DNA of 32,000 nucleotides, taken from assembly GCA_016205145.1 (NCBI GenBank), contig JACQJH010000001.1:270001-302000 (forward strand), written 5' to 3'. Position 1 is the stretch's first letter, and every line of letters begins with the position of its first letter. Shown here in pieces: positions 904 through 19,900 of this stretch. The notes beneath the pieces are model-generated. The model worked only from the letters and a program-made list of their open reading frames with translations. It was not told the origin of the DNA and did not search any database. The position numbers were made by a program, and so were the translations under genes. This DNA comes from Candidatus Iainarchaeum sp. (GTDB taxonomy: Archaea; Iainarchaeota; Iainarchaeia; Iainarchaeales; JACQJH01).

Positions 904-920
904 TTTTGGTTGCGGTTTGC

Positions 921-2032: not shown

Positions 2033-2356
2033 TCAATACCCGCCGGGTCCGCCGTAGCCCCCGCCGCCCATGTCACCGAACATGTCCATTGGATAGCCTT
2101 GCGGCGCACCGGGCTTGTCCCCGGAACCGAAGGCAAGCGCTATGATTATGAGGCTGACAAGGATTATGGGGCCGTATGTCTTCACGTCCGGGAAAAGGAA
2201 GAACGCGCCGAGCATGATGATGACAAGCAGTATTGTCCCGATGGAACGCATTGAAACCACGAGTATGCCGACAACTCCAAGAATCATCCACTGCTGGTTG
2301 AACTGTATGGCAAGCATTATGAGCAGGACGGCAATGATGAACGCGAGCGTATCCAT
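2033..2356 (-). CDS. Small membrane protein (3 TM) with a Gly/Met/Pro/Tyr-rich C-terminal tail
   Basis: 107-aa ORF: MDTLAFIIAVLLIMLAIQF...ILGVVGILVVSM...ILLVIIMLGAFFLF...IILVSLIIIALAF. The tail is GDKPGAPQGYPMDMFGDMGGGGYGGPGGY. It abuts the next gene with no gap. Confidence 0.8.
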   Translation of the reverse strand: MDTLAFIIAVLLIMLAIQFNQQWMILGVVGILVVSMRSIGTILLVIIMLGAFFLFPDVKTYGPIILVSLIIIALAFGSGDKPGAPQGYPMDMFGDMGGGGYGGPGGY

Positions 2357-2389
2357 TCAAATCACTTTTTTAATGCCGCCGCCATTTCA

Positions 2390-2614
2390 TCACGCCATTT
2401 TAGCGAACAATTCCTTTCCGAACGTCGCGAACAAAAATATCACTGCCGGAATCCAGACCAGCTCCGGGAACTGGAAAAACGTCAGGTAAACTACGATAAG
2501 CGAAAAGATGATGGCGAGTTTTGCGCTGCCAAGCTGGCCGCTCGCCCAGCGGAAAATCCACACAAGGTAGACGAGAGTCAGCACCTGAATGAGGTTTGTC
2601 ACAAAGTCAGCCAT
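2390..2614 (-). CDS. Small membrane protein (2-3 TM)
   Basis: 74-aa ORF: MADFVTNLIQVLTLVYLVWIFRW...LAIIFSLIVVYLTFF...VWIPAVIFLFATF. It has the same strand and spacing as its neighbours (33-35 nt gaps). Confidence 0.7.
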   Translation of the reverse strand: MADFVTNLIQVLTLVYLVWIFRWASGQLGSAKLAIIFSLIVVYLTFFQFPELVWIPAVIFLFATFGKELFAKMA

Positions 2615-2649
2615 TTTCCCGCCTTACCATAATTGTGCCGCATCCGGTT

Positions 2650-2985
2650 TTAATGCTGCCCTCCGAGAACCGAACGCACGTTGACCGTTCCCCAGAGTAT
2701 GACCGAGAAGAACCCGAAAGTCCAGAGAATGAACAGCACGTAAACCGATGAGAAGATGTAAACCCATTTTATTGCAAGGAAATATATCAGCACCCCCGAA
2801 ATTATGAGCGACGGCACGCCGGGGCCGAGGAAATTCCTCACTGTCGTGAAGATGACGAGCACGAGTATGAGCCTGAAAACGATGTTTGCCGGAGTGAAAA
2901 AATACATTATTGTCGGCACGGCAATGGCAATGAGCAGCAGGAACAGGAAAACCAGCACGAGCGCGTTGATTCCTTTTTCGTTCAT
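2650..2985 (-). CDS. Small polytopic membrane protein (4 TM)
   Basis: 111-aa ORF, almost entirely hydrophobic (INALVLVFLFLLLIAIAV, FRLILVLVIFTTV, SLIISGVLIYFLAI, VYVLFILWTFGFFSVILW). Its ATG overlaps the upstream stop (ATGA at 2982-2985) and GGAGG lies 6 nt upstream. Confidence 0.85.
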   Translation of the reverse strand: MNEKGINALVLVFLFLLLIAIAVPTIMYFFTPANIVFRLILVLVIFTTVRNFLGPGVPSLIISGVLIYFLAIKWVYIFSSVYVLFILWTFGFFSVILWGTVNVRSVLGGQH

Positions 2986-3317
2986 CTTCTGCCTCCTTCA
3001 TGGCGCATCGGCCCCATCATCGGCATTCCGCCGTGCGCCTGGTCCCCGCTCTGCGGCAGCGCCCAGAACACGTCTATCAAAAACTGCGTCATTCCGAAAG
3101 TAAGCATGAGGTATAGCACGAATATTCCGCCGAAAAACCGCCAGTAATCGAACACCACAAACCAGGAAATGATTGCAATCAGGAGCAATGCCATCGGGCC
3201 TTTTCCGAGGTGGTTGAGTATGAACGAAACGATCGTCATGAGCGCGAAAATCTTCAGCAGGAAGTTCGCGTCCGACAGGAGCTCGCCCAGCAAAAGCAAT
3301 GCCAAATCCGGTTGCAT
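2982..3317 (-). CDS. Small membrane protein (3-4 TM) with a Gly/Met/Pro-rich tail; first gene of the small-membrane-protein operon
   Basis: The track ORF is 2982..3356 (124 aa). I prefer ATG 3317 (MQPDLALLLLGELLSD...). The 13 extra codons (MEIIYSRKTIGNI) are AT-rich promoter-like DNA containing a TATA box 23 nt upstream of 3317. The tail is QSGDQAHGGMPMMGPMRHEGGRR. Confidence 0.8.
   Translation of the reverse strand: MQPDLALLLLGELLSDANFLLKIFALMTIVSFILNHLGKGPMALLLIAIISWFVVFDYWRFFGGIFVLYLMLTFGMTQFLIDVFWALPQSGDQAHGGMPMMGPMRHEGGRR
2992..2996 (-). promoter_or_regulatory. Shine-Dalgarno-like GGAGG for the 111-aa membrane protein gene
   Basis: The minus strand reads GAAGGAGGCAGAAGATGAAC, placing GGAGG 6 nt before ATG 2985, inside the 3' end of the upstream gene. 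Confidence 0.45.
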
Positions 3318-3340
3318 AATATTGCCTATGGTTTTTCTAC

Positions 3341-3348
3341 TATAAATA
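3341..3348 (-). promoter_or_regulatory. TATA-like box (TATTTATA on the minus strand) for the small-membrane-protein operon
   Basis: It lies 23 nt upstream of ATG 3317. A second motif, CTTTTTAATC (3358-3367), directly abuts the giant-1 stop codon (3368-3370). Confidence 0.45.
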
Positions 3349-3367
3349 ATTTCCATTGATTAAAAAG

Positions 3368-6300
3368 TCAGCTTATGCACGTATTCCCGGCTGACAGCCC
3401 CGACTCGAAGCCCTCGACGCTTTTCCCGCCTGCACCATTTTCCTCGAACAGTTTGAGCGCATTCCAGTAGAAAACGCTTTTGTCGCCGGAATCCGAAAGG
3501 CAAACAGTCTGGTCTCCGACCATTCTGAACAGGTCGTTGAGCTCCTGCACCGTGCCATTTGATGCGAGATTGTTTTTCTTCATCCCGCCCAAGCCGTTCA
3601 GGTTCACGGTCGTGCCGGTTTCGCTGTTCATTGTCGTGAACGAAAGCGTTCCGTCTCCTGGAGAAAGCGCCTTCAGCACATAGTTCGAGTTCGCGGGCGT
3701 AAAGACAACGGTTTTGAGGAAAACGTTTCCCTTCTTTTCCGCGCTCTGCCAGTCGACCGCGTAAGCGTTTTCGGCGCCCGGAACCGGGTCCGAGGAATTT
3801 CCTTTCCTGTCGGGCCTGTCCCAGAAAACGTTTGAAGCAAAGTCGCCTGAGAAGTCCTTGCAGTTCGACATTCCGGCCCAGTACGCGAAAACCGTGCCAA
3901 GGGTTTTCGGCTGGCCGGCCTGGAACAACTGGTAGTAGGCCGAGAGCCTGCTTCCATCCGTTTTGTCGGAAGACATTTTCATTACAACCGGTGTTGCATA
4001 ATTCGGCGAGAATGTCATCTCTTTGTCAGTCCCGGTTGCGCGCCTGACTGATAGCAGTGCTCCGCGCGTGTCAGCAAGGCCGTTGATTTTTGCCGGGTCG
4101 GCCTCGATTTTTGTCCTCAGCAATGTCATTGCATCCGAGTTTTCAATCGGCTTTGTTTCGATTATGTCCTGCGAGTTTTCAGTCGAGATTTTCACGGCTT
4201 GGCCGCTGTTCAAATAGTTCAGGCCATAGCCCTGCCTGCCATTGCTTGTGCCGACCCCGACCTTTCCGTCGAACGGCAGATAATAGAATGTCGATTGCGG
4301 TTCAGGATAGCCCTTGTAATAGAATTTCACAAGGATTTTTGCCTTGGGCTTTCCGTCCGGGCCGAAGAATTTCCAGCCGTCGCCGAAGTCGATCCAGGCC
4401 TGTGCGTCATACGTGCCTGCATCGGGCAGTTTGTCGGAGCTTGTAGTGTATTGGAAGTCAAGCCTGTCAGTGTCAGCAAAGTAGTCCGCAAACTTTCCCG
4501 TTCCATCGGAATCGAAATAGCTGGGCGTGTTGTAGAATGTCTTGTGCGCGTAGAATTCCGCGAAATCCTTCTGGAAATCGTCCGAATAACCGTCCCTTAT
4601 CAGGTTGACTCTTGGCCTGAGCAGTTTCCTGAGGGTTTCCTTGTCGGGAACGTGCTCCGTCCAGTTGGGTTCCTGCTGGTCGGCGTTTATGAGTTCTCCG
4701 AATGTTTCCAGGTCGCGGTCAAAGAACGCCTCTACTCCGGAAACTCCGGGCATCACTTCGTATGTCGTGTTCTTCAGCCAGCATTCCTCGTCCGCAGGAG
4801 GGGAAAAATTCCAGAACAGCAGTTGCAGGTTGTCTGTTGAGTAATGCGTTGCGTCGCTTGCCGGCAGTGCGTTCACGAAACCGGGTGCAAACAACGCGTA
4901 TGCAATGAACGGGTGCCCGGATTTTCCCAATGCGTTCCCGTCGAATCCGAGTTCCGCTGAGCTGTTCCTTGCAACGCTGATCTCCTTTTCCTCGTCCCCT
5001 GACACCGCGTTTCCTTCGGTTCCGCGCAAACGGAAATGCACTTTTACTGTCCTGTCCTCCGAAGTCCTGTTGAACACCTCGACCGTGAATTTGAAATTGT
5101 CGTTTTCGTCCTTGTCGTAGCGCAGTCTCTGCAGGCCGATTTTTCCGGCAGGCACGTCCTTTTGGCTTGCAGTGCGGGTGTTTTCCTCGGCCACGCCCTG
5201 CCTTACTTTGTATTCGGGGTTGACCGGGCAAAAAAATACCGGGTTCGCGTCGAAGAATTCGCGCAGGAACTGCATTTTCTGCGTCAATGCAATGCTGAAC
5301 TGCGTTGCGTCGCAGTAAATGCCATCCGGATTGTCTGCATCACAGCTTTCCGCATTGATGTTGTCGCTTCCATCCGTTGTCCACTTCCAGTTGAGGTTGA
5401 CTTTAGGCAAGGCCCCTTCGCCCGTCCTTCCGTTTGCGTTGCATGCGAACACGTTGTTGCTTAACTGAACGGGCTGCCATTGCTGCAATTCCTTGGTTTG
5501 CACGCGGATGTGGAATTTCTGCGAATACGTGCGCGTTGAAATGCCATTGCAGCTTCCCTGTTCGGGCGAATCGCCTATGTTGTATTCGGCGAGCGTTCCG
5601 CTGCTGCATTCGATGTCATACGAGTCATCGCCCGTTCCATGGCTTCCGTTTTCATTGTCATGCCTGAAGTCGCCGTGCACGTGCTCATTCGCCGAGACTG
5701 TGAGGATGCCGTATTCCGGCAAATCCGACCCGTAGCCTTGGTTTGAAAAGTCTATTTCCTGGGTTTCGAATAATCCATCCCGCCCTTCCCTGAAATTCCA
5801 TTCCGGCTTTATTTTTCCATCGAAACCGCTCACAGAAAGCATGTCGTCTGATGTGTCGGGCGGCACTTTCAGCGAAGGGTCTTTCAGCGAGGTCGAGCCG
5901 CCCAGGTTTATGACGAATGCCGGAAGCGTGTTCACTGCATGAACGTCATGGCATGAAAAGAACAGGTCTGCCAACAACATGACCGCAAAGTATGCGATGA
6001 CTCCGATTGCAATGTTTATCGCGAACGATGTTCCAATCGTTGCCGCGGTTGTCCCGCCTGCAAGCGCGGCCGTCACTCCCCCGATTGAAACGCCGAGTCC
6101 GATGGAAAGCAAGGCGGTTACAGTAACGCTTACCTGGATGCTTGTCGCAATCAGGGCGGCGGTTTTAACATAGCTCCTGAACTTTGCCCTGTCAGTGTTC
6201 TGCAAATCCTTCCACACGCAGCCGTCAGCGCGCACCTTGACCTGTTCGATGTACGCGTTGTTGTACAGCGCTGTCTTGTCCTCGCTGCCGGGGAAAACTT

Positions 6301-9300
6301 TCAGGTCGTACCGGTCCATTGAAAAGTAGCCCATGCCCGCCCAAGGCCTGCCGTTTTCCCAGTGCGCCGGGTTGAATACAAGGATATCGTCCTTGCGCAG
6401 TTTTTTGGGCGCCCTTGAAGCGAAATTTCCGTAAACGTTTATGCCGTAAACCCCGGCTATGTCGCGGTCGCCGTCGACCTTTATTGTCTTGTGATTTGTG
6501 TTCGGGCCCGGCACCAGTTCGAAGTCTTTTTCTGACAGGCTCAGGCCGCCTTCGGTTCCGCCTGAGCATCTTCCGTCCTGGTAGCACAGCCTTATCCGCA
6601 CCGGCTGGCTTATGTTCGGGCAGTTTTCAATTGAAACCGTGATTTCGCCGGTGGGATCGAAGAATGGCGTGCCTGGATTGTCGGCGAGTTCGCGCCTGCC
6701 GTTTTCCGGAGAATAGCTGATGCAAGTTGAAAGGTTGACAAGGCTGATTCTTCCGCTGAAATCCCTTGTTGCCTGGGTTTCGTCGAAGCCGTGCTCGGAT
6801 TTTAGCAGGCCGTTAACCTGAATGTCGAATCCCGCATCATTGTTTTCCGCGCCGAGCTTTGAAGTGAAGACAAGGCTTGCGGAAACGCTTTGCCCGGCCG
6901 GAATTTTTTCAAGCACGCCGATGGGCACGTTCGGCGGCAATGCGTACAATCCGATTTCCCTTCCCGTGCCGTCCTTCAATGAAAGTGAAACGTCGCCGAG
7001 ATGGCCGCCGCTGTTGGGCTGGTACGAAAACTTCAATCCGTCCAGGGCAATCGGCGTGCCGTCGATTTCGCAGTTGTTGGTTATGCTGGAGATGTGCCCG
7101 TCGGTTTTCCCGTTGTCCGTGAAGTCAACCCAGTCGGGGTTGTCGATTGAAACGCATGGCGTTGCGGGAACGTCGCCGAGGGAAATCGCAACTTTCAGCG
7201 GCAGTTGCACGTCATAGGTTTTTGCGAACGCCGCGTTCTCGAAAGTGAAAAGCGCCTGGCCGTCCACGCTCTCGTTTTTGGCGATGAGCAGAGGTGAAAT
7301 GATTTTGGTTTTGATTATGCCTGAAACCTCTTTTTCCTCGAGGCCCGCAAGTTTCAGGCCATTGCCGGAGTCCACGCCGGTTTTAGCGCGCAGGAACGAA
7401 AGCATTGAAGTGTAGTCGAGCAGTGCAAAGAACCTGGAATTTTTTCCGGACAGGCCTGCCTCAGCAAGCCCCAGTTCGGCGCCGGAAAAATTTTTCATGG
7501 TCAGGGTTTCCTGTATTATTTCCTCCGTCCTGTTCCGCGAGTTCACGCCTGACGCGAGGCTTTCAGGCTCGAATGCGATTATTTCATCCGAAACCACGAG
7601 CTTCAATTGCGCGTCCTGCCAGTAGCCGATTTTTTCGGCTTCGAAAACAATTTGCGTCGATGGCGAGCTTGCCGGCAGATGGAACACGGCTTTTCCCTGG
7701 CCATCGCTCAGGCAGTTGTTGCCTGAAATGCATGAAAGCATTGTTTCGGTTCCGTCGGCAAGCCTTTTCCTCGCCTTCAACAGCACGTTCTCCAGCAGCT
7801 TCCCCTGGCGGTCTTTCACCGTCACAAGAATGTCTTTTTCCTCGAATGCGTGCAATTTGTCAGGTTCGGCTGACAGGACAAGCGACTCGTTTTTCCTTGT
7901 CCGGAAGCCGATTTTTTCCCTGAACAGTGTCTGTCCCGCGGAAAAGATTTTTGTTTCAAGCGAGTTCGCCTGCACCTTGCTGCCGCGTATCCGCAATTTC
8001 ACGAGCACGCTTTTTCCCTTTGAAAAGTTTGGCAGGGGGATTGCACTTATTTTGGATGCGTTGAAGTTCGCATTTTCGACAATGTTTGACTGCGTGTCAA
8101 GAACAGAATAGCCTTCGATTGCAATGCCGTTGTCCTCCGCGTTCCTGGAATCAACGCTTGAAATTGAAAGCGCGGGCTGTGCAAACTCCGCATCCGAGTT
8201 GTTCCTGATTATGAACGAAACCTCGTATGGCGCGAAAACAATGATGTCGTACGGCGGATCGAGGAAAAGGTTTTCGCGGAGGTCCAAGACTTTTTCGCCG
8301 GCATAGCAGAAATCGGAATCACAGCGGACCAGCACACCTTCCTGGAAATCGCTCAAGTCAAACGTTTTCGCGTACAGCTCTTTTTTTGACGCGGTTTCAC
8401 GCGCGGCCCCCAACTCGGTGTCGGCAGGCATCCTGCTGTAAGAGTCTCCGCTGGCAGTCCACGCCCTGTAATGCATTGGCAGCGGCGAGAACGCGGGCGT
8501 GGAACTTTTCACCACGACTTCAAAGCCGGCTTCAGCCACCATTTCTTTTCCGTCCGGTGCAAACCTTGCGTTCGCCCATTTTCCGGGCATGCCTGTCTGC
8601 GGCACGGGATTTTCCGCATCAGTGCCCGCCGGAGGATTGTAAGCTGCGCCCTTTTCAATTGCCGCGTTTCCTATGTCCACTGCGCCTACGAAAAGGTTTT
8701 CGCCGGCAATTCCTGCCTGGTCGCCTGCCCTGAAATGGACGCCGGCGCCTTCAACGCCTGCGGGAACGCTCAGGCGAAACAATGCAATGTACGAATGGCC
8801 TGCTTCCATTGCATTGCTTTGCCTGTAATTGTCAAGCATTCCAATGAATTCGATTTTTGGTCCGGCAATGCCGCCTTGCAGTGGCAGTTCGCCGGAAAAT
8901 TCCGCCTTGGTGTTTGCGAAAAGCGTTTTCGGGATTGTCGTGAAAGAAACATGGCCGGGCGAGGTTATGACCACAAAGGCTTTCTGCCCCGCCCTTATTT
9001 TCTGCGAAGCCTTTCCGTTTGGCAGATCAAATTTTGCAATGCTTTCTCCGAGCATGTTGAAGAATTCGGCCTGCGAGTTTTGGAGCGGCGCGCCTTGTTC
9101 ATCAGTTGCCTCGATTTCAACATCGGCATCGCCTATGACCAGCCTTACCCTGAATTCGTTCAGCTCCTTTTTCAGGATTTTTTTGGCAATCCCTTTCGGC
9201 GCGGCGTATGCCTGCGCCTTGTACGCCGAAGGGTAAAGCGTTTCCTCTTTCACTCCCGCCCACAATGCAACGCCGTTGGCGTCGGTTGAACGCGCGGGAT

Positions 9301-10831
9301 ACGGCGCGAGATTCCCGTTTTCAAACAACAGCTTTGCAATCGCGCCTTCGACCGCAACATCGTCCTCGTCGAAAACCTGCACCCTCACCTTTCCGGAGTT
9401 TTCCTCCGTGACTTTTTCCAGTTCGATTGAAACGTTCTGCTCGCCGCTGAGCGAGGCAATGCCTGCCGTGCCGTAAAAATAGTCGTCCTGCGAAACCACG
9501 ATTGCCAGGTTTGCCTGCGGGTCGAAGAATGAAACGATTGCGTCTTCGCCGCCTGTGCCGGTTTTTCCCGTGCCTATTTCAGCGCCGTTTGCATTGCGCA
9601 CGGAAACAACTGCATTTCCAATCCTGCCGCCCGAACCTTTTTCAATTGCTGAAACAACGAGTCTGGCGCGCACGTTCCTTGAAACAACCGCATTCACGGC
9701 CGTTTCCTGTGCTGGCAGGACTTCAATGCCCTGCTGAGAATAGCCGGAATACGCGCCGTTCGCATCCGAAACAACAACAGAATACCTGCCCGGCAGGAGG
9801 CCCTTGAAGACTGCCTGTCCATAATATTCCGTGTTTTTTTCCGCGACCAGCCCGCCTTCGAAATCATTTAGCCGCACCGAAAAATTCGTTGACGTGACAA
9901 TGCCTTGCTTTTCATCCGCTATCGTCACCCGGATTTTTCCCGCAATCGCCAAGTCCGCCCCGGTTTCGCGGATTTTTCCCTCGCAGTCATTTGCGCACGC
10001 GTTTGCGTCCTCGCTGTTCTGGCATACGCCGTCACCGCAAACCGCGCCCGCCCCGCTCACGCCGCCGGACAAGAGCTCTGGTGTCAAGGTGAGAGTGTTG
10101 ACGGGCTGGGGCAATTGGAATGTTTCCTCGCCAAAGCCGGACGCAAGCACAGTCGCGGAGAGACCGATGCACTCTGAAACGTTTTCAACGATTATTTTTC
10201 CGTCGCCGTCGTCGTCCGCCAAAACTTCTATGGGCAGAGTGCCCTGCCTGCATGAAAGCCTGACGCTTGTGCCCTTTCTTGCAACGCGCTCGCCGCTTGG
10301 GGCCTTGAAAATTATCGTCTTAGTTGGAACTTCCACGCCGGCATATTGCAGGACGATTTTCTGTTCCACGCCGGCCTGAACCGCAAACGTGCCGGCGAAA
10401 CCTGAAACGGTTTTGCCGTTCACAAGCTGTTCCCTCACGGCAATTTCAATGCTGTCAGCATTTCCTGCCGCCACTGAAAACCTGCCATCTGCGCCGGAAA
10501 CAGCTTCGCCGGCAGCGCTTCCAACAATGAAATTGATTTTCACACTTGACAGGCCCTGTCCGGTCAGGTCAACAACCGCAAAATCCGCGTGAACGCCCTG
10601 ATTTGGCATTGCCTGCTGCAAAAAAATGGCCGCGCCGAACACTAGAACAAGCAAAACCATTGCCAGCAGCAATGCAAACGACGGCACAACCCTGTCGACC
10701 GCGTCAACAACGCCGTAAACAGGCGCGCCCTTCGCCTGCAATGCGTCAAGCAGGGAATAATACCTGTCTTCCGCCGAATAATAGAGTTCTTTCAGTTTTC
10801 CAAGCAAGCCCATGTAGAACAGCCTTTTCAT
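3368..10831 (-). CDS. Giant membrane-anchored surface protein, paralogue 1 (2487 aa)
   Basis: Uninterrupted 7.46-kb ORF. It has the N-box GLLGKLKELYYSAEDRYYSLLDALQAKGAPVYGVVDAVDRVVPSF and the TM helix ALLLAMVLLVLVFGAAIFL. Beta-sandwich repeats follow, e.g. KIRVTIADEKQGIVTSTNFSVRLNDFEGGLVAEKNTEYYGQAVFKGLLPGRYSVVVSDANGAYSGY. It also has a CGDGVCQNSEDANACANDC motif, a central hydrophobic block and a C-terminal module (NPDGIYCDATQFSIAL, DGYSDDFQKDFAEFY, FYYLPFDGKVGVGTSNGRQGYG). It is collinear with giants 2 and 3. An alternative start is ATG 10813 (MGLLGK). Confidence 0.97.
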   Translation of the reverse strand: MKRLFYMGLLGKLKELYYSAEDRYYSLLDALQAKGAPVYGVVDAVDRVVPSFALLLAMVLLVLVFGAAIFLQQAMPNQGVHADFAVVDLTGQGLSSVKINFIVGSAAGEAVSGADGRFSVAAGNADSIEIAVREQLVNGKTVSGFAGTFAVQAGVEQKIVLQYAGVEVPTKTIIFKAPSGERVARKGTSVRLSCRQGTLPIEVLADDDGDGKIIVENVSECIGLSATVLASGFGEETFQLPQPVNTLTLTPELLSGGVSGAGAVCGDGVCQNSEDANACANDCEGKIRETGADLAIAGKIRVTIADEKQGIVTSTNFSVRLNDFEGGLVAEKNTEYYGQAVFKGLLPGRYSVVVSDANGAYSGYSQQGIEVLPAQETAVNAVVSRNVRARLVVSAIEKGSGGRIGNAVVSVRNANGAEIGTGKTGTGGEDAIVSFFDPQANLAIVVSQDDYFYGTAGIASLSGEQNVSIELEKVTEENSGKVRVQVFDEDDVAVEGAIAKLLFENGNLAPYPARSTDANGVALWAGVKEETLYPSAYKAQAYAAPKGIAKKILKKELNEFRVRLVIGDADVEIEATDEQGAPLQNSQAEFFNMLGESIAKFDLPNGKASQKIRAGQKAFVVITSPGHVSFTTIPKTLFANTKAEFSGELPLQGGIAGPKIEFIGMLDNYRQSNAMEAGHSYIALFRLSVPAGVEGAGVHFRAGDQAGIAGENLFVGAVDIGNAAIEKGAAYNPPAGTDAENPVPQTGMPGKWANARFAPDGKEMVAEAGFEVVVKSSTPAFSPLPMHYRAWTASGDSYSRMPADTELGAARETASKKELYAKTFDLSDFQEGVLVRCDSDFCYAGEKVLDLRENLFLDPPYDIIVFAPYEVSFIIRNNSDAEFAQPALSISSVDSRNAEDNGIAIEGYSVLDTQSNIVENANFNASKISAIPLPNFSKGKSVLVKLRIRGSKVQANSLETKIFSAGQTLFREKIGFRTRKNESLVLSAEPDKLHAFEEKDILVTVKDRQGKLLENVLLKARKRLADGTETMLSCISGNNCLSDGQGKAVFHLPASSPSTQIVFEAEKIGYWQDAQLKLVVSDEIIAFEPESLASGVNSRNRTEEIIQETLTMKNFSGAELGLAEAGLSGKNSRFFALLDYTSMLSFLRAKTGVDSGNGLKLAGLEEKEVSGIIKTKIISPLLIAKNESVDGQALFTFENAAFAKTYDVQLPLKVAISLGDVPATPCVSIDNPDWVDFTDNGKTDGHISSITNNCEIDGTPIALDGLKFSYQPNSGGHLGDVSLSLKDGTGREIGLYALPPNVPIGVLEKIPAGQSVSASLVFTSKLGAENNDAGFDIQVNGLLKSEHGFDETQATRDFSGRISLVNLSTCISYSPENGRRELADNPGTPFFDPTGEITVSIENCPNISQPVRIRLCYQDGRCSGGTEGGLSLSEKDFELVPGPNTNHKTIKVDGDRDIAGVYGINVYGNFASRAPKKLRKDDILVFNPAHWENGRPWAGMGYFSMDRYDLKVFPGSEDKTALYNNAYIEQVKVRADGCVWKDLQNTDRAKFRSYVKTAALIATSIQVSVTVTALLSIGLGVSIGGVTAALAGGTTAATIGTSFAINIAIGVIAYFAVMLLADLFFSCHDVHAVNTLPAFVINLGGSTSLKDPSLKVPPDTSDDMLSVSGFDGKIKPEWNFREGRDGLFETQEIDFSNQGYGSDLPEYGILTVSANEHVHGDFRHDNENGSHGTGDDSYDIECSSGTLAEYNIGDSPEQGSCNGISTRTYSQKFHIRVQTKELQQWQPVQLSNNVFACNANGRTGEGALPKVNLNWKWTTDGSDNINAESCDADNPDGIYCDATQFSIALTQKMQFLREFFDANPVFFCPVNPEYKVRQGVAEENTRTASQKDVPAGKIGLQRLRYDKDENDNFKFTVEVFNRTSEDRTVKVHFRLRGTEGNAVSGDEEKEISVARNSSAELGFDGNALGKSGHPFIAYALFAPGFVNALPASDATHYSTDNLQLLFWNFSPPADEECWLKNTTYEVMPGVSGVEAFFDRDLETFGELINADQQEPNWTEHVPDKETLRKLLRPRVNLIRDGYSDDFQKDFAEFYAHKTFYNTPSYFDSDGTGKFADYFADTDRLDFQYTTSSDKLPDAGTYDAQAWIDFGDGWKFFGPDGKPKAKILVKFYYKGYPEPQSTFYYLPFDGKVGVGTSNGRQGYGLNYLNSGQAVKISTENSQDIIETKPIENSDAMTLLRTKIEADPAKINGLADTRGALLSVRRATGTDKEMTFSPNYATPVVMKMSSDKTDGSRLSAYYQLFQAGQPKTLGTVFAYWAGMSNCKDFSGDFASNVFWDRPDRKGNSSDPVPGAENAYAVDWQSAEKKGNVFLKTVVFTPANSNYVLKALSPGDGTLSFTTMNSETGTTVNLNGLGGMKKNNLASNGTVQELNDLFRMVGDQTVCLSDSGDKSVFYWNALKLFEENGAGGKSVEGFESGLSAGNTCIS
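3371..5950 (-). other. Conserved C-terminal module of giant 1 (about aa 1627-2487), function unknown
   Basis: It aligns by eye along its length with giant 2, e.g. LIRDGYSDDFQKDFAEFYAHKTFYNTPSYF vs IMRDGFTQDFQKDFDEFAKTKSFFATPSYY, and FSPNYATPVVMKMSS vs YSPSFATPVLLRVSS. A 24-nt stretch is identical at DNA level (5285-5308 = 12777-12800). Confidence 0.65.
5950..6170 (-). other. Central hydrophobic hinge of giant 1 (about aa 1556-1626), 2-3 predicted TM-like segments
   Basis: YVKTAALIATSIQVSVTVTALLSIGLGVSIGGVTAALAGGTTAATIGTSFAINIAIGVIAYFAVMLLADLFFSC is about 70 residues, nearly free of charge and rich in G/A/T/I/V. Confidence 0.6.
8935..10600 (-). repeat. Intragenic tandem array of carboxypeptidase-regulatory-like/Ig-like beta-sandwich domains (giant 1, about aa 78-632)
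   Basis: A recurrent ~80-90 aa pattern: alternating hydrophobic strand (xVxVxVxD), G..l..A.V, T...G.a.f..l.pG.Y.v.v...gy. Examples start at RARLVVSAIEKGSGGRIGNAVVSVRNANG and GKVRVQVFDEDDVAVEGAIAKLLFENG. Confidence 0.6.
10607..10831 (-). other. Conserved N-terminal box plus signal-anchor TM (giant 1)
   Basis: See the three-way alignment in findings. The hydrophobic helix begins only at about aa 53, so this is not a classical cleaved Sec signal. Confidence 0.7.
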
Positions 10832-10976: not shown

Positions 10977-13900
10977 TTATGGCAGTTCCCTTGGCCCGGT
11001 CTTGGGTTCGGTCTGCGTGCACGCGGCTTCCGCGGCATTCATCTGGCCCTGCATGTTTTCAAGTATGGGCTTGGGGTTCCAGAAGAACGCGCTGAAAGCC
11101 CTTGAAGAAGAGCCATCAACACACAATGCGCCGTCGTTGACAAGATTGAAAACGTCCTGCAAAGTGTTTATGCCGCTGCCCGGCGAATTGTTCGCCATGC
11201 CGGAAACTCCGACCAATGCGACCTTGTCTCCCGCCTCGTCCGCGGTTGAAAGGCTGGCGCTCTGCGAAGCCGAAGTGATGTAAATCCTTGACGAAACGTT
11301 TTGCGGCGTGAAAATGACAGTGCTCAAGCCGACGCTGGTCGAAGCTCTCTTGGGCGAGCACCATTCAAAGCCGTAAGAAGTGGAAACCGCATCCCCGAGA
11401 ACGCGCGCGCACTGTTTCTCAAGGGCCTGCCTGTCCCTGGCATTGTAAAACCTTTCCGCCGCAAGCGCGTCGTCAAAGTCCCTGCATGCTCCCCCAACGC
11501 CCGTCCATTCCGACAGGTATGTCGAGGTTCCGAACGGAGTGCCGCCAATGTCGACTCCGTAGAAAGCGTAAGCAGATTCGGCAACCGGGCTTGAAACCCT
11601 CAACAATACCGGCGTCGCAAAGCTCGGGCTGTAATCCAGCTTTGTTGTTTCGCCTTGCGTTGAAACGCTCAGAACTATTCCGCGTTCCGTCTGGTTCAGT
11701 GTCCTGAAATCGTTGTTGAAGCTTGCCAAAATCCAGCCGTTTGGCACGGGCAATGAAGTCGGCGAATTGGTTGCAAACACCGGCTGTGAGGAATCAGCAT
11801 TGATTTTGATTGACTTTTCCGATTCTTGCCTGAAGTTGACGCCATAGCCCTGCCTGCCATTCGCGCTGTCCAATCCGACTCTTCCGTCAAACGGCAGATA
11901 ATAGAACGGGCTCTCCGGGTTCGGCGCGGCTTCTCTCGTCAGCTTGACTTCGATGAAAACATCGGGCTTTCCGTCCCTGTAAAAGTCCCAGTTTTCGTTG
12001 TTGAACTTGATGTTCATTTCAACCAAATATTTGCCTGCTTCGGCAAAGCCTATTGCCTGGCCGGGCACAATGAATTTGAACCTGTTCGTGTCGCCGAACA
12101 GCTCTCCAAGCCCGTCGTTTTCGGTGTAATAGCTTGGCGTTGCAAAGAACGACTTTGTCTTTGCGAACTCGTCGAAGTCCTTCTGGAAGTCCTGCGTGAA
12201 ACCGTCGCGCATTATGCTCGCCTCAAACCTCAAGTCCTTCAACGCCTTCTCCGAACCAGGCAGTTTGCCCCGTTCAAGCTCGGTCGCAACAACGTAATCG
12301 GAGAACTTCTTTGTGCTGTAATCCCCGCAGTCCTGCAATCCCGAGAAACCCCATGCAAAGTCGCTGTTCAAATGGTCGTTTGCCTTTTCCGCGTTCTTGC
12401 AGTCGGCGCACAATGCGACTGTGGCGTTCGCGTCAATCTGGTACTGGCCCTGCCTCAGGCCGTCAACTATGCAGCTTGTGCTTGACTTTGTCTGCACTGA
12501 AACGTCTTCCTCGCATTCCTTGACAACCGAGCCGTCAGCCGCCTTGACAGTGGTCTTCACTTTCGCCTGAACCGCCTGCGCATTCGAATTGCTGACCGTT
12601 ACGACAACCTCGCCGGTGTTGTTGCCGAGCTTCCTGACCTGGGTCCTCGTTATCCCCGCATCCGCGTCAATTTCGCTCAACGACTGTTCCCTTATGGACG
12701 AAACCGATTCGGGTGAAGCGCATTCGAACGGCCTGTTGGCCTCGACAAAGTCCCTGAAATCCTGCAATTTCTTGAGCAATGCAATGCTGAACTGCGTTGC
12801 ATCACAGTAGATTCCATCCGGGTTCGAGGCATCGCAGCTGTTTTCCTTGACACTGCTCCAGCTCCAGCCTATGCCCTTTGCAAGGCCGATTGCGGGCAGG
12901 GCCTCTTTTCCGGTCGAGCCGATCCTTGCGCCAAGCTGGCAGTTGTTCAAAGTTACCGCCGGGCAGGGGAAAGTGTTCGGGCCGCATTCCTTGGGATCGA
13001 ATGAATTGAACTGCAAATGGAATTTTTCGAGTATTTTGTTCCTGTCCTCTGTTGTCTTCTTTTCATTGGCTTTCGGCTGGTCGGGCTCCCTTTTGCCCTT
13101 GTAGCCTTCGGTTTCAAACTGCTGCCTTCTCGCCTGCACCTTCAACAGCCTGAAAAACGGCACTGTCGGGTCGGCCTGCTTTATTCCCTTTGAATTGATG
13201 AACGCCAGATCCTGCAGATAGTTCGCAAGCAGGGGATCATCCTGCCTTGGAATGCTTGAATTCGTGTCAAGAATCTGCAATACGATGTCCTTGCTTTCCT
13301 CTTCAGCAATAGTTGCCGTGCCCGCGCCGGTGGCCGGCTCGATTTTTTCGCCCGTCATCAGCAATTTGATTTCCCCGACAAGCGCATCCTTGGCAATGAT
13401 TGTAAACTTCACGTCATCCTGGTTGTTGTAAGCCATCCACGTGCCGAAAATCAGGCCATACATGCCGTAGCTGTAAGGATTGGGCTTGCCGAGAATGGCC
13501 GAACCGGCGCCGATCAAAACACTTGTCATGAGCTGTGGCAGTCCGCCCTGCCCGCCAAGCGCTCCGCCGCCGGTCAAAATGTAGCCCATCGGATTCTCTG
13601 CAAAAGTTGGATATTGGCCCGAACCCATCTGCGGCCCGCCGCCAAACAGCGTGCCCTGCTGTCCAAACAAATCGTACCCCGTCAAAGGCGCGGTCACAAG
13701 GCCGGTGGAAGGCGAAACATCCGAGCCCTGCGCCAGGCCGGCGATGGAGGAATGCGAAATGTCTTCTGACAAGCTGGCCGACTGTGAAGTCCATTGCGTG
13801 CACGCGTCGCTGTCGCCGGAATCGCATTTGACTTTCAATGCTTCAAGCCCTGTCACTTCAAAGATGTTGGTTCCTGATGATTCAAGGCTTTTTGACTTGT

Positions 13901-16900
13901 AAACCGCGGTATCTTGTGTACTGCCCCGGTGCCTTATAGTGTAACGTTCGGCATAGTTTTTGCTCGTGTCTTTGTAGGAATATTTGTAGCTGACAAAACA
14001 GAATCCTGTATTGGGTGAAGTATACCTGTATGGGCAGTTGTTGCTTGCTGTCTTAGCAACCAAACCAGTGGTAGCATTTTTCAAGAATGCGGCTCGGACA
14101 GTGTCCGGCGTCACGGTTATATTGCCCACACTGTGTGGCTGGCTGTCATTAAGTGTTGTCGCGCCAGCCCCCCAATTTTCTTTTGAAGTGCTGTATTGCA
14201 CGGTATTGTCCACAGTAATCCTAAAACGGGCAAGAACAGTTTGATTAGATGTCCTATATGTGACATATTTGTACCAGTTTGTGGCCAAAAAAGAATCAAC
14301 GTCTTTGGTTTTGCCCGGTTGGTTGGGCACCGGTTCCTGTGTTCCGGACCATCCGACAAAAGTTTTGCTCAAATCAACCGTGCCGGTTCCTTCCGCACCG
14401 GGAGCGGGTTTTGGTGTTCCAGTTACAACTGTCGACCGAGGCCCGTCGCCGGATGTGTTGAATGCAACAATATAATAGAAATAAGTTTTCGCGTTTGCCA
14501 ACCCTTGGTGTAAAAATTCCGCAATTTGGACTGTTTCTGCTAGCACATACGGCGTGGTATCTGGCTCCGCGGTAAATCCGAAATAAATTTTGTATCCTGT
14601 CGCGCCGGCAACAGCTTCCCAAGTCAACGTTATTTTTGCATCTCCTTCATCAACCGTTATTCCTGCAACTTTTTTTGGTTTTGTCGCTGCAGGGGCCTGC
14701 CCGCTACTGATTGATATTTCCTCAGATTCCCCCTGGCCTATAATTTTTCCGCTGCTATCGGCTGCTTGGACGAGGAAGCGGTAGTTTCCAGGACTCAATT
14801 CATCAAACACTGTTGCATCAACGGTTGACCCCAATGACCTGTCTGCAAGTGAATGATATTCCTCTTTTATGACATATCTGCTTGCACCCTCGACTAGTGT
14901 CCATGACACAGTGGCCGCGTTGCCGTTGGGTTGTGCTGTTACAGTTATTTCTTTCATTCCGGTTCCTGCGCCTGGTTCTTGTGTCTGTCCGGCAATAACT
15001 TTGACTTTTAGTGTTATTATGTTTCCGTTGCAATTTGCGGTTATTGTCGTGTCCCCGATTGCTATTGCGGTTATGGTTGTTGTCTTTCCGCTTGTCGGGG
15101 AAACCTCTGCAATGGATGCCTCTTGTGTTCTCCAAGCAATGCTTTCGCAGTTTTCCGCCTGCAGCGCCTTTGTTTGTCCGACCTGCAATTCTATTGTGTG
15201 GGTATTGTTTATTGTTTGTCCGCCACTGATTATTTCAAAGCCGCTTCCGCCTTCAGCTTTACTTTCACTCATTATAAATTTTATTTTTGCCTCTGCCGTG
15301 CTTTCCAGGTTCAATGCCTTGTTTCTGGCAATGAATTTGAGCTGGAATTCATTGGGCAGTTTTTTGATGTCAAATACTTTTATTGTAAATGCCGGGATGT
15401 CGTTTTCCTTTGTAACAGTCCAGTCAGTCGTGGATTTTAGGCTGCCGCTGTCCCAGTCGTATTCGGTTACTTTATCGGGGTTGTCGATTTCGCCTATAAA
15501 TGTGATTTCCCCGGCCTTGCTGACATTTATCTCATTGGTTTTATTGCTTGTAAGGAGTTCAAGTGGGCGTCCATTCGGACTGAGTATTCTTGCTTCGCCG
15601 AGCTGGTCGGGGTCGATGACGTGGACTATAATCGTGTTCGAAACCACTTCGCCTTGCGTATCTGTCGCCTTGAGTCTTGCCTGTATCATATAGTCTCCAG
15701 GTTTCGGGGCTGTCCCAGTATATGTTTCCCCGTTCCGTGTGGTGATTGGCACGACTTCGCCGTTGCGCAACCATTCTATTTCGCGGTCTGCACCGTGGAT
15801 TGTTTCGTTATACTCTGCGACAAACTTTATTTCGTCGTTGGGCTTGAAAGGCGGCTCGCTTAACAGCCTGATTTTGAATCCTTCCGGCGCTTTAAGGCTT
15901 TTTATTTCGCCTGCAATCTTGACTGTTTTGATTATTTCCTGCGCCTTTTTATTGATTATGGCTGTCATCGGCACGGTAAGTGTTATTTCGTCGACTTTGA
16001 CTTCGTCTATGTTTTCAAATTTGCTTTGCCTGTCCTTTGAAATGACTATAGAGTACTGGCCGTTCTGGTTTGGTCCCGCAACGCTGTCTATTTTCCAGTC
16101 CGGCCACTCCTTGTCGGCTGAGAATCCTCTGCCCGAGCTTATGCTGACGTTTCCGCCGCGCCAGCTTATCTTGTCCTTTTGTATCTGCGTTATGGCCGTG
16201 CCCTGCTGCGGCGTGAGTTCTGCAGCAGCCCGTATTCTCGGATAACCCGTTGCCGGGTCGTTCGGATCAATATATATGACGCCTGTTGCAGTAACCACGG
16301 CCTGCATTTCCTGTTGCGTCAGCGGCTTTATTTCTTTTTTGCTCGCCCCGTAGTATTGTCCTATCGCGCCCAATGCCATCATGAGCAGGCCGGTTTTGAG
16401 GCCTTCCATGAGGGCTTTTCCGAAGTCTTTTGTGCGCGAAGTGATTTCGACTTTTTTTTCCGAGCACTTGTTCAAGAGCTGTGCCGTGTCATAACCGTCG
16501 AACTGGTTTGTGGGGTCGTCGTAGACGTCGAACTCGTATTTGCTCAATTCAAAGCAGCCGTCCGGCGCGATGCGCGCCCTGACCATTTTCAACAGCCTTT
16601 CCTCGGTCTGGCCGAAGGGAGTCGCGTTCACAAATACCGGGTACTGTCCGGGATTGTTGTTTTCCGCGAGAATCTGGATTGCCTTGGTTTCCTTTTCCCC
16701 GAGCTGGAAATTGCTTTCGCTTAAATTGAGCTTTGACTGGAGTTTGAACTGCGTTGCCTGGCCGCAGCCAAGCGTTTCAATGTTGAATTCCCCGCTTTCG
16801 CCTTTTTTCATGTTGACTATGCCCTTGTCTATGCGGACGCAGTCCTTGAAATTGACTGCCGCGATTTCAACCGTCATCTTGTCGTTGAGCGTCTGGCTCC

Positions 16901-19900
16901 CGCTGTCGGTTTTGTTGCCTGCCTGGAATTCGATCGTCGCTTTTGCGCTTCCGCTTGTTCCCGCGTCAGGCGTGAACACCAGTGTGAGGGTCTGGCTTTC
17001 CTCCGGTTCCATTCTTGCAAGGATTGTCCTGTAATAGCCGTCCCTCAGTTCCTTTGTGAACTGTTCGCTTCTCAACTCGAATGTTCCGATGCTGTTGCTC
17101 TGCCAGTCGATTTTCGCCTGAATCTGTTCCAATGGGATGGGTGTCGAGGCGACTGTGCAGTTGTTCTGCAATGTCACGGAAACCTGCACTGGCGAGCCTT
17201 CTGTCGAGGTTTTCCATTCCTTTTTGCTTATCGTGAAGCAGGTCGGAGTGTCGGCTTCTCCCCCCACGCCGATGGAAATCTTGACGGGCAATTCGAAACT
17301 CCATTCTTCATCAAGCCCTTCAAGCGTCGCAATAAGAGTTCCGGACAGGTTTGTCGCCTGTGAAACCCTTCTGCCGAGGTCGGAGAGGTTTGCCCTTAAA
17401 GTGAAGCTTGACTTGTCGTTTGCCTTGATTGTTTCGCCTTTGAATGTTTCAAGCCATTGCGAGACCTGGTCTTCGCTGATGTAGCCGCGCAAGTCGCCTT
17501 GCAGTTCGAATTGCCTGACTTTGAGGTTGAACTCGGTCCTGTTTGTTATGTCGAAGACTGCCGTGTTGTCCGGCCTTGTCTGCGCATTGAGCGTAAGGCC
17601 GAGCGTGTCGGGCGACAATTCCGCGATTTTGTCGTTCACGTTGAGCGCGGTTTCAAACGTCTTGTATTCCTCTTTTTCGACGAACAGCTTGAGCTTTTCC
17701 CCCGGCATCTGGCTTGGCAGTTGTATCTGCGCTATTCCCTTGACTGTCGTGTCTGCCTGCAGCAATGTCGAGTTGAACCTGTCCTTTATTTTGACTGCCG
17801 CATTTTCGACTTCGAGTTTCGTGTTCTTGTCCTTGACTGACACGGTTATCTCGTTCTGCACGCCTGATGCGAGCAAATCGGGCCTGATTTGCACGTCAAA
17901 CTCTTTTGCGGGGTCGACTGTTATTGAAATGTTCTTTTCGTACCTTATCCTCTGCCCGCTTCTCAATAGTATTTTGATTGTCTGGCTGCCCGGAGCCTGA
18001 GGCGAGAAGTTTAGCGTTGTGCTTATCGCGTCGCCCGGCTTGAAGTCCTGCACGTTTATCCAGGCGGTTTCAAACGCGTTCACGTCGCCTGATTTTTTTC
18101 CGTTCTGGCTGCCATAGACCGTGTAAGCGCCCAAATCCATTTTTTCTTCCGGGTTCTGGATTTTCATTGTGGCCTGCGGGAAAGTGTCGACGTCGTTCCC
18201 GGAATTATTCTGTATGGTGAAGTTGAACACGTACGGGTTGAATATTTTGGCAGTGAAGTCATTGTTGACTGTGGTCAGAATGTCCTCTTTCCTGTCAAGT
18301 ATGCTGCCGGAGAAGCAGAACCTGTCGTTGCAAAGCGTTTCGGTTCCGACCTGGCGCGTTTCCGTTTTTGCGTTGGCGTAAAGGCCTTGCTTGCCCCCCG
18401 CATTTTCACTTTCGCCGAGCCCGGTGTCAAGGGGATCTCTCTTCCACCGGTTGTCCTGCGTTATTGCCCAGGCGCGGTAGAATATGTTGAGTTCGTCTGA
18501 AACGCCTGCGGTTTTCTTGACTTTGATGTCGGCCGTGAACTCTATTATGCCTGACTGGAATGACTGCCATTCAGCGTTGAACCATTTTGCCTCGTCAAGC
18601 GTTTCCTGTATCTGGCTGTCCTGCGCATAATTGTCGGGCGGATTGTATGACACCGATTTGATGACTGCGGGGTTTGCCGGCAGGTTCAGTTTTTTTATGA
18701 GCAACTGGTCGGTTTCAATCCTGTTCGTGTTTCCCGTCCTGACGTGCACGCCCACGCGCCTGTAATTCCTTGTGTTGTCCTGCCTTGGAATGTGCAGTTT
18801 GAATTTTGCCGTATACTCTTCGCCTTCCGTGAGAACCGTTGCAAGGTCTGCGCCCTTGTAGAGGCCGGCAAGCTCTATCTGGACGTCGCCGCTGATTTCT
18901 TCCGGCTCAAGCGTTGCGTCTATGACTGTCGCGGAGTTGGGCTGTATGTCGTACACTATTGTCGTGTAACTGCCATAGCCTTCCTTTGAGACTACGGCGT
19001 AAACGCTTTTGTCCGCCTTTGTGGTGTATGTCAGTATTCCGTCGGGGCTTTCAACCGGCCTTGAGCCTCCTCCGACCACTTCCCTGAAAACCGGGTCGTA
19101 GAATGTGACGTCCGCAAATTGTATGGGCTGGCCGTCCTTGTCTTTCACGTGCACTTCGATTGTGCCGTCCGGGATCTGCAAGGTTACGACAAGCCTCTGC
19201 TTTTCGTACGCGTTCTGCACGAACTTGACCGGGTCGCTCCAGCCTGCTGTGGAGCCTTTGAATGCGAATGCCTTGTATGTTCCTGTGGGCGCGATGAATT
19301 CGGCTATGCCGTTGACATCGGTTGTTTTTTGCGCGTATCCGAGGCTGAAGCCCTCTTCAGTGTACAGCTTTACCGTCGCGTTCCTGATCTTTTTGCCCTC
19401 GTCGCTTAAAACCTGCACCTGCAATTGGGCGCCGCAGCTGCTGTTGCCCGGAATGAATCTTTCCATTTCGACTATGCGCAAAGTGTTGTTCGGCACTATT
19501 CCGGAGAGCCTTTGGGGACAGTATCCTGCATGGTCTATTGTCATATCGTATGGCGTGTCCTCTTCCACGCTGAAGACTGCGTTGAAATCAGTGCTTGAGG
19601 TTGTCTTTGTCTCGATTTCCCGCCCGTCCCTGAAGAGCGTTGCTATTGCGCCGCTTATGCCGGAACCGTTGTCCTTGTCGACCGTTTTTATCCTGATGGT
19701 GTGCAGTCCGCTTAGCGTTCCACCGCCCCCTCCGCCGGACTGCAGTGTTATCGTTATGGTTTCCCTTCCGTTTGCCTGCACTGAAACGCTTTGCGATGTT
19801 TTTGAAGCATAGTTTGCCGTCGAAGAGGTTCTTGCAAAGTATGTTCCCGGGGAAACGTCGAACGACGCTGTGCCGCCGATTGCGTCTTTTGTGTCAACGG

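Follow-up and report, generated by a model that had tools for sequence, protein, structure and literature searches.

A conserved N-terminal module ahead of the probable membrane anchor of giant envelope proteins in Iainarchaeota

Introduction

In Gram-positive wall-associated and adhesin proteins, the YSIRK-G/S (PF04650) and KxYKxGKxW (TIGR03715) motifs occupy the N-region of the export signal and are tied to a particular secretion site or pathway; both are short and lie inside the basic n-region of a signal peptide that is cleaved. Gram-negative autotransporters, trimeric autotransporters and TpsA proteins carry the ESPR (PF13018), a conserved N-terminal extension that precedes a hydrophobic export segment, turns up mainly on surface proteins of very large size and is believed to do more than simply target them (PMC2805444). 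The ESPR is about 25 amino acids (aa) long, has charged and hydrophobic parts of its own and is followed by a classical cleavable signal with n-, h- and c-regions. The element described here is, like the ESPR, a conserved N-terminal extension ahead of a hydrophobic segment. It lies in a 32,000-nucleotide stretch of Candidatus Iainarchaeum sp. (contig JACQJH010000001.1, positions 270,001 to 302,000; hereafter the window), where three giant proteins, G1, G2 and G3, begin with a common 'box' that ends in Pro-Ser-Phe (PSF) immediately before a long hydrophobic segment. We tentatively read this box as a cytoplasmic docking or assembly handle.

The box differs from the ESPR in being about 45 aa long, acidic, archaeal and helix-loop-helix in its predicted form, in preceding a segment of anchor length with no detectable cleavage motif, and in showing no sequence match to it. 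The PGF-, PEF- and Loki-CTERM signals of large archaeal surface proteins resemble it in setting a three-residue P-x-F motif against a transmembrane (TM) helix, but they are C-terminal, face outwards and are followed by a basic tail, whereas the box is N-terminal, presumably cytoplasmic and has no basic tail after the TM helix. The tails of type II (N-in) bitopic proteins, a class defined by architecture and not a homologous family, likewise combine a short cytoplasmic N-terminus, a single long anchor and a large extracytoplasmic C-terminal domain, and often carry docking or sorting information; compared with these, the box is unusually conserved, folded according to prediction, confined to one phylum and common to several diverged giants. 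By analogy, its nearest counterparts in function would be the N-terminal export-signal extensions on bacterial giant surface proteins (ESPR, YSIRK and KxYKxGKxW). The box itself is a phylum-specific archaeal pre-anchor module without an annotated family.

Three giant proteins share an N-terminal box

The three giants are encoded co-directionally on the minus strand, in open reading frames (ORFs) of 2487 aa for G1 (3368-10831), 3253 aa for G2 (10977-20738) and 2581 aa for G3 (21386-29131). An earlier note on this DNA had pointed out a shared N-terminal box ending in PSF before the TM segment of all three, and this observation is confirmed, its three peptide strings being letter-perfect. The ranges that it gave coincide with the N-termini, the first 70-75 codons of the three ORFs; it left the strand unstated, and the minus strand is needed, as the plus-strand reading of the same ranges is nonsense. 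Aligned with one another, the proteins begin MG-L-K-x-x-Y-x3-E-[DE]-[KR]-Y-Y-x2-L-D … P-V-Y … P-S-F and continue into an uncharged stretch of 23-34 residues, with 23 invariant columns among about 72. The box is the best-conserved part of the giants, at 39-50% identity versus about 23% across the ectodomains.

An independent profile, built from 150 other family members and free of window sequences, scored G2 at 89.3 bits (E = 1e-20), G1 at 82.1 bits (E = 1.9e-18) and G3 at 63.4 bits (E = 1.2e-12) in a search space (Z) of 1.84e9. When all six reading frames of the window were scanned with this profile, exactly three box copies and no further ones appeared. Alignment and independent profile together bear out a conserved, charged segment of about 45 aa before the hydrophobic anchor. 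Synonymous sites vary among the three copies, indicating that selection acts on the protein and not on a DNA or RNA element; conservation of the box at the nucleic-acid level was ruled out on this ground.

Family N-termini and the upstream sequence place the likely true starts at ATG 10813 (G1), TTG 20732 (G2) and ATG 29122 (G3). From these codons the proteins begin MGLLGKL..., MGLKDIYY... and MGLKEFY..., respectively, all opening with Met-Gly-Leu like the family consensus. A TATA-like TTTTATA lies about 35 nucleotides upstream of ATG 10813, and the database entry P0024 (3251 aa, MBI4052687.1) begins at TTG 20732. G1 is identical to P0001, a protein encoded on a 613-kb contig of an NCBI metagenome-assembled genome (MAG) labelled Candidatus Diapherotrites archaeon. 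Residue 2 is Gly in most family members, a striking conservation that would leave Gly leading the chain after Met removal; no known archaeal modification is implied by this Met-Gly start.

The box marks very large proteins of one archaeal phylum

No matches came from a word-indexed search with the alignment of the three boxes, and an exhaustive search with HMMER was needed. Using an 11-sequence box profile against 1.84 billion representative proteins, we obtained 999 matches at E<=1e-3 and 546 at E<=1e-10. In nearly all of the best 150 of the 999 matches, the match starts within the first 20 residues. Conservation over 153 N-termini is 100% at Y11, E15, Y19 and P43, 99% at D23, 98% at P30, S44 and F45, 96% at D39 and 95% at Y32, and the family consensus reads MG-[IL]-x-D-x-[LI]-K-x-x-Y-[YF]-x-L-E-D-[KR]-[YW]-Y-x-x-L-D-K-[IL]-[DN]-x-K-[IV]-P-[VI]-Y-K-[VI]-[IV]-D-P-I-D-[KR]-V-[VF]-P-S-F. 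Among ten homologues of G1, all of 1.5-3.2 kaa, eight carry the box; P0003 lacks it and P0007 is truncated inside it.

Scanning one genome per GTDB species with one peptide pattern gave at least 200 pattern matches, at least 190 of which were confirmed as box loci; 76 loci were kept. The titles of 38 of these name Iainarchaeum, Diapherotrites or 'ainarchaeum', 31 say only 'archaeon' (including the complete AR10 genome) and 4 say 'Micrarchaeota'. The other three are bins labelled Thaumarchaeota, Falkowbacteria and Chloroflexi, all from one study, and are probably mis-binned. Named box genomes are almost all Iainarchaeota (Diapherotrites). In viral contigs (IMG/VR), none of 36 pattern matches was confirmed as a box. 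Carriers bear only the database names 'carboxypeptidase regulatory-like domain-containing protein' or 'hypothetical protein', and the papers searched neither mention the motif strings nor describe giant envelope proteins of Diapherotrites or Iainarchaeota.

Intact carriers are nearly all longer than 1,100 aa and rich in β-sandwich domains, and complete box ORFs in the GTDB loci are mostly 1,150-3,100 aa long. Small box proteins as a real class were largely rejected: four of six short 'complete' ORFs (in L007, L051, L060 and L068) continue as a giant in another frame, and no giant-homologous continuation was found for the 478-aa box ORF in L043 and the 674-aa box ORF in L010. The entries P0020 and P0161 are two halves of one 2565-aa protein, judged against P0162, with one half-entry of 1,340 aa. 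Such frameshift-split giant genes in public MAGs, whether assembly errors or pseudogenes, lead to an overcount of 'small' box proteins in databases. Complete box proteins of 1,150-1,500 aa form a class of their own that is only weakly similar to G1-G3, lacks the giants' C-terminal domain and is composed of CarboxypepD_reg, Big_1 and PKD domains; its members are sometimes encoded without a full G1/G2/G3 trio nearby. A YCDATQF-type C-terminal motif (...YCDATQFS...) occurs in 49 of 55 family members of at least 2,000 aa, versus none of 44 of 1,000-2,000 aa.

Giants without the box also exist. P0003 and a 2459-aa gene in L001 are homologous to G1 and keep the TM segment, indicating that the box is probably not required for the export of such proteins. 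Box-less giants (L001 18071-25450 and 6918-9818; P0003) have a short basic tail followed by the TM segment instead, for example MMDFIRENGRRISNAVETAGLVR-TM, and share clusters with box-bearing genes.

Predicted structure, anchor and topology

The structure prediction that the earlier note had proposed gave a confident helical model. AlphaFold2 (AF2), run on G1 residues 1-80 with a 53-sequence alignment, placed helices at 9-33 and 38-46 and a TM helix at 51-74, with a mean predicted local distance difference test score (pLDDT) of 89.8 (about 93 in the two box helices) and a predicted template modelling score (pTM) of 0.62. Helix 1 is amphipathic (hydrophobic moment, muH, 0.45): on the helical wheel, Y11, Y12, E15, D16, Y/W18, Y19, L22 and D23 lie on one half, and the opposite face is variable. 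In the model, such a one-sided invariant Tyr/acid face is the pattern to be expected if it makes specific contacts, whether inside the module or to a different protein. The Ser-Phe of PSF opens the TM helix and the Pro stands just ahead of it, so that PSF caps the modelled helix, which offers a structural explanation for its conservation.

Across family N-termini, the median length of the uncharged run that follows PSF is 28 residues (10th-90th percentile, 23-34), and roughly its first 19 positions consist almost wholly of L/I/V/F/A; the window anchors reach Kyte-Doolittle (KD) peaks of 2.9-3.2. Lys plus Arg (K+R) averages 5.6 in the box versus 2.5 in the 45 aa past the TM segment, with 1.6 in the 15-aa N-flank of the TM segment, and everything past it is of extracellular type in Pfam (CarboxypepD_reg, Big_1, PKD and fn3). 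Small-x-small motifs after the hydrophobic segment are not enriched (75% versus 70% background). One long N-terminal hydrophobic segment, more K+R on its N-side and extracytoplasmic-type domains on its C-side are the features of a type II signal-anchor, and the segment would thus appear to be an uncleaved anchor in the N-in/C-out orientation. The cytoplasmic location that the earlier note had presumed for the box fits both the domain content and the K+R distribution.

The single TM anchor described in the same note applies to G2 and G3. In G1 there is a further cluster of strong hydrophobicity, rich in Gly, Ala and Thr (aa 1557-1630; 5942-6163, minus strand; TAALIATSIQVSVTVTALLSIGLGVSIGG...FAINIAIGVIAYFAVMLLADLFF; KD up to 2.4), which lies just before the conserved C-terminal domain; weaker Gly-rich hydrophobic stretches occupy the same relative position in G2 and several homologues. 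This cluster could form extra TM passes or a membrane-inserting loop, either of which may alter the topology of the C-terminal third. The conserved C-terminal region itself spans about 700 aa (G1 3368-5520, G2 10977-13025 and, in divergent form, G3 21386-23500, all on the minus strand). It has no Pfam match, carries the motifs NPDGIYCDATQFSIAL and FYYLPFDG-x-VG-x4-NGRQGYG and represents an uncharacterised distal domain. G3 also contains a Tyr/Gly/Ser/Ala-rich low-complexity stretch (aa 1306-1415; 24887-25216, minus strand; GYGIYQGYGYNPNAYSGALGAGYGYQSGAGYQTPYPASQYAYGYN...), and a similar one is present in the G3-type orthologue P0008.

Comparison with known signals and families

Pfam-A scans of the whole giants (E<=0.1) and of 11 isolated box-plus-TM segments (E<=10) found no N-terminal family, no ESPR and no YSIRK. 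NCBIfam, applied to the giants and the isolated boxes, gave no KxYKxGKxW (TIGR03715) and no significant CTERM sorting signal, the best matches being Loki-CTERM (E 0.45, 2 of 11 sequences) and PEF-CTERM (E 2.5, 1 of 11). Neither a sequence profile search of the PDB nor a Foldseek comparison of the AF2 model with the PDB matched the box. The twin-arginine (Tat) motif [ST]-R-R-x-F-L is present in none of 130 family N-termini and in none of G1-G3, and a lipobox ([LVI][ASTVI][GAS]C) follows the h-region in one of the 130. Class III signals, which have a short basic n-region and a prepilin peptidase site immediately ahead of the hydrophobic helix, differ as well: here the helix is preceded by a conserved, acidic segment of 45 residues, and the junction reads V-P-S-F, not [KR]-[GA]. 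The carriers are archaeal and without the β-barrel translocator domain of ESPR-type (type V) secretion.

These results limit the earlier claim that the box is not a Sec, Tat or class III signal. No Tat or class III features were found, and the Sec part of the claim holds for the box alone, because the hydrophobic stretch that comes after PSF is long and qualifies as an ordinary candidate signal-anchor for Sec and the signal recognition particle (SRP). The earlier note had named two outcomes as counting against its idea, a match to a known signal or domain family and restriction of the box to these three paralogues. With Pfam, NCBIfam, PDB and Foldseek all without a match and 999 representative proteins found by the profile search that it had suggested, neither applies.

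Box genes lie in a conserved cluster

In the GTDB loci, box genes form co-directional tandem arrays. Best-hit typing recovered the order G3-type, G2-type, G1-type in L005 (AR10), L015, L018, L019, L028 and L034, and likewise in L039, L006, L027, L036 and L046. By sequence comparison, the G1, G2 and G3 types are old, separate orthologous groups. Since these groups keep a conserved order in many genomes, a recent duplication as the origin of the three boxes was rejected. A G3-type variant of the box, LDWLD-x-KG-[IV]-PVY-x-VVDA-[IV]-E-x-x-N-[IV]-PSFP, is diagnostic across genomes.

The full conserved order comprises a pilin-like 600-aa protein (p600), the G3-type giant, a 168-aa membrane protein (m168), the G2-type giant, the G1-type giant and four small membrane proteins (Table 1). 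A conserved upstream neighbour of G2-type giants, m168 has homologues immediately upstream of box genes in L003, L005, L006, L034 and L036, and its Pfam result is a weak EI24/CysZ match alone (E 0.018). The N-terminus of p600 (…NQRAFNLFTALLSFMLILLAALLVNS…) resembles a type IV pilin-like class III signal, and p600 homologues stand upstream of giants in 10 loci; the sole domain match, to a ComGF pilin, is not significant (E 0.15). All four small membrane proteins, none with a Pfam match, recur in the same order in L004, L007, L027, L036 and L039, and the 124-aa one (m124) also in L040. Synteny of the coiled-coil gene (cc224), which has weak coiled-coil matches only, is conserved in L004, L007, L027, L036 and L039; in L080, a 195-aa gene on the opposite strand takes the cc224 position, its homology to cc224 being unchecked.

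The earlier note had also raised a dedicated insertion or export machinery and a neighbouring NTPase, and neither found support. Within the conserved cluster, no ATPase, accessory Sec gene or other gene recognisable as part of an export system can be seen. The supposed NTPase is probably the ORF that runs off the left window end; it has one homologue cluster (P0167, 361 aa) in an index of 5.8 billion proteins, and neither the ORF nor the complete 361-aa homologue has a Pfam, NCBIfam or PDB match or any detectable domain.

At the other end of the window, a 203-aa protein (31300-31911, minus strand) carries a clear N-acetylmuramoyl-L-alanine amidase domain (Pfam Amidase_2, E 4e-30). A peptidoglycan-cleaving enzyme beside the giant cluster of a DPANN archaeon could point to interaction with bacteria.

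Table 1 Coordinates and contents of box-related features and neighbouring genes in the window
Feature	Position	Strand	Description
G1 box	10676..10813	-	aa 7-52 of the ORF listed from 10831, MGLLGKLKELYYSAEDRYYSLLDALQAKGAPVYGVVDAVDRVVPSF; 82.1 bits; helices predicted by AF2
G1 putative signal-anchor TM helix	10607..10675	-	ALLLAMVLLVLVFGAAIFLQQAM... after PSF; KD peak 3.05; predicted AF2 helix 51-74
G2 box	20610..20732	-	MGLKDIYYAWEDKYYRFLDKLDQSIPVYKIVEPIDRIMPSF; likely start TTG 20732; 89.3 bits
G2 hydrophobic anchor	20541..20609	-	VLFLILVLLLILGTAGFAWTLIN; KD peak 2.87; sole G2 segment with KD >= 1.5
G3 box, G3-type variant	28994..29122	-	MGLKEFYIHLEEKYYGFLDWLDNKGVPVYSAVDALEKNGIPSF; likely start ATG 29122; 63.4 bits
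G3 hydrophobic anchor	28925..28993	-	PIAIILLLLILGLIGWFLVLPAV; KD peak 3.16; sole G3 segment with KD >= 1.5
Giant 1 (G1)	3368..10813	-	about 2481 aa: box, TM, β-sandwich region, mid hydrophobic cluster, conserved C-terminal domain
Giant 2 (G2)	10977..20732	-	3251 aa: box, TM, CarboxypepD_reg, Ig-like and fn3 domains, conserved C-terminal domain
Giant 3 (G3)	21386..29122	-	about 2578 aa: box, TM, six CarboxypepD_reg stretches, Tyr/Gly-rich region, divergent C-terminal domain
m168	20832..21338	-	168-aa polytopic membrane protein between G3 and G2; candidate partner
p600	29332..31134	-	600-aa protein, first gene of the conserved cluster; N-terminal hydrophobic pilin-like segment
Four small membrane proteins	2033..3356	-	124, 111, 74 and 107 aa; directly downstream of G1
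cc224	906..1580	+	224-aa acidic coiled-coil protein; divergent orientation, end of cluster
ORF off left window end	1-835	-	syntenic after the coiled-coil gene in L036 and L080

Discussion

The reading that we favour, tentatively and as somewhat short of probable, is that the box is a cytoplasmic juxtamembrane module, a docking or assembly handle shared by signal-anchored giant envelope proteins and recognised by a putative partner. It would fold as a small helix-loop-helix unit that opens very large envelope proteins specific to the Iainarchaeota (Diapherotrites). After the Met-Gly start, an amphipathic helix of about 25 residues would present the invariant Tyr/acid face (Y11, E15, Y19 and D23, with Y12, D16, Y/W18 and L22); a loop with an invariant Pro and a short helix (VYKVIDPID) would follow, and the invariant PSF would cap the long, very hydrophobic TM helix. 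This helix would serve as an uncleaved Sec/SRP signal-anchor, holding the box against the membrane on the cytoplasmic side (N-in) and leaving the β-sandwich ectodomain of 1,100-3,200 aa outside the cell. The box would then bind either a single partner common to all, in the cytoplasm or the membrane, or the boxes of sister giants, such that the proteins are positioned, clustered or co-assembled. A common handle is suggested above all because the same box occurs on the anciently diverged G1-, G2- and G3-type giants and on the 1,150-1,500-aa class. We prefer add-on docking to an obligatory export signal because box-less giants keep a tail and TM segment, the hydrophobic segment is of anchor length, the conserved face is polar and aromatic, and the box is found on at least four diverged protein groups.

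Several points weigh against a docking handle. The box is acidic, with a mean net charge of -1.8, which makes the charge-difference argument for an N-in orientation weak and leaves the topology resting mainly on domain content. Signal peptidase may cleave the hydrophobic segment. The docking partner is putative throughout, the AF2 output having come without contacts, and all box sequences derive from uncultivated MAGs or metagenomes. The conservation could also reflect a role in biogenesis, through targeting or the pacing of translocation, as opposed to stable docking. A more elaborate possibility, which we regard as unlikely, is that giant envelope proteins have a dedicated, Iainarchaeota-specific pathway of biogenesis and assembly that recognises the box as a tag, with the always-co-encoded proteins as its components: m168, the four small membrane proteins encoded after G1 and perhaps cc224 and the 361-aa protein. 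Such machinery would capture each box at the inner membrane face, insert the three giants and order them within a single envelope super-structure. We know of no described counterpart of a protein-sorting system of this kind in archaea.

An export role without docking would make the box the extended leader of a cleavable signal peptide, a functional analogue of ESPR, YSIRK or KxYKxGKxW that modulates targeting or slows Sec translocation of long passengers and is removed by signal peptidase together with the hydrophobic segment. This explanation accounts for the occurrence of the box only on very large exported proteins (the short 'complete' ORFs being mostly frameshifted giants) and for its place directly N-terminal to a hydrophobic export segment, and it has a precedent in the bacterial giants with their extension of about 25 residues before an n-h-c signal (PMC2805444). 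We nonetheless consider it improbable. No ESPR, YSIRK (Pfam) or KxYKxGKxW (NCBIfam) match appears even at E<=10, and the 23-34-residue uncharged stretch, with at least 19-24 L/I/V/F residues, is anchor-like and unlike a 7-15-residue h-region; it is followed by no conserved c-region and no enrichment of small-x-small motifs. The acidic box is also unlike signal-peptide n-regions, and box-less paralogues have the same TM segment. The P-S-F at the TM boundary invites a comparison with archaeal sorting signals, in which P-S-F plus TM would be an N-terminal counterpart of PGF-, PEF- or Loki-CTERM, cut and/or lipid-modified by an archaeosortase-like enzyme. The motif is invariant and sits exactly at the boundary, and Loki-CTERM and PEF-CTERM are the only sorting-signal families in NCBIfam to match at all; their E-values are not significant, however, and the motif is N-terminal rather than C-terminal. 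The box would moreover face the cytoplasm whereas archaeosortase works at the outer face, no basic cluster lies past the TM segment, and the helix cap in the AF2 model gives PSF a structural reason for its conservation. A sortase-type signal is accordingly very improbable.

Two further explanations keep the box in the cytoplasm and dispense with a separate partner or with a specific interaction. In one, which we likewise consider improbable, the box is an oligomerisation element: the amphipathic helices of G1, G2 and G3 would pack as a short cytoplasmic coiled coil at the membrane and thereby form a hetero-oligomer. The heptad-like hydrophobic spacing over about three heptads (L7, F10/Y11, L14, Y18, F21/L22, I25) is consistent with such packing, as is the encoding of the three paralogues always together, co-directionally and in fixed order; the distinct, conserved G3-type variant is what would be expected for a specific position in a hetero-complex. 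The most conserved positions, however, are Tyr and acidic residues beside the hydrophobic stripe and not the stripe itself, and the box is also carried by the 1,150-1,500-aa class, sometimes where the full trio is missing nearby. In the other, the box determines topology only, as a fast-folding N-terminal mini-domain that blocks translocation of the N-terminus, so that the very hydrophobic anchor inserts N-in/C-out. Denzer et al. are said to have reported in 1995 that the folding state of an N-terminal domain affects signal-anchor orientation, and both the compact helical module, confidently predicted directly before a long Leu-rich TM helix, and the few positive charges beside that helix (1.6 K+R in the 15-aa N-flank) would suit such a plug. 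About a dozen specific side chains (Y, E, D, P and PSF) are nearly invariant across the phylum, which goes far beyond what a generic folding plug would need, and box-less paralogues reach the same architecture with a short basic tail; we hold a purely topological role to be quite improbable.

Whatever its function, the box is robust, widespread in one DPANN phylum and clearly under strong selection, and its pattern of conservation suggests an interaction. Giant surface proteins take up a large part of the tiny genomes of DPANN archaea, and about 25 kb of the 32-kb window encodes them. To our knowledge, nothing is known of how such proteins are targeted, anchored or organised. The box provides a searchable marker, Y-x3-E-[DE]-[KR]-[YW]-Y-x2-L-D ... 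P-[VI]-Y ... D-P-I-D ... P-S-F plus TM, that singles out the envelope proteins of an entire phylum and directs attention to a conserved, presumably cytoplasmic surface for interaction. It is useful for a domain model in the style of Pfam or NCBIfam and for better annotation of carriers, as well as for correcting start codons and detecting frameshifted giants in MAGs. If the partner of the docking handle is to be found among the co-clustered small membrane proteins, the box would belong to a new archaeal system for sorting or assembling surface proteins.

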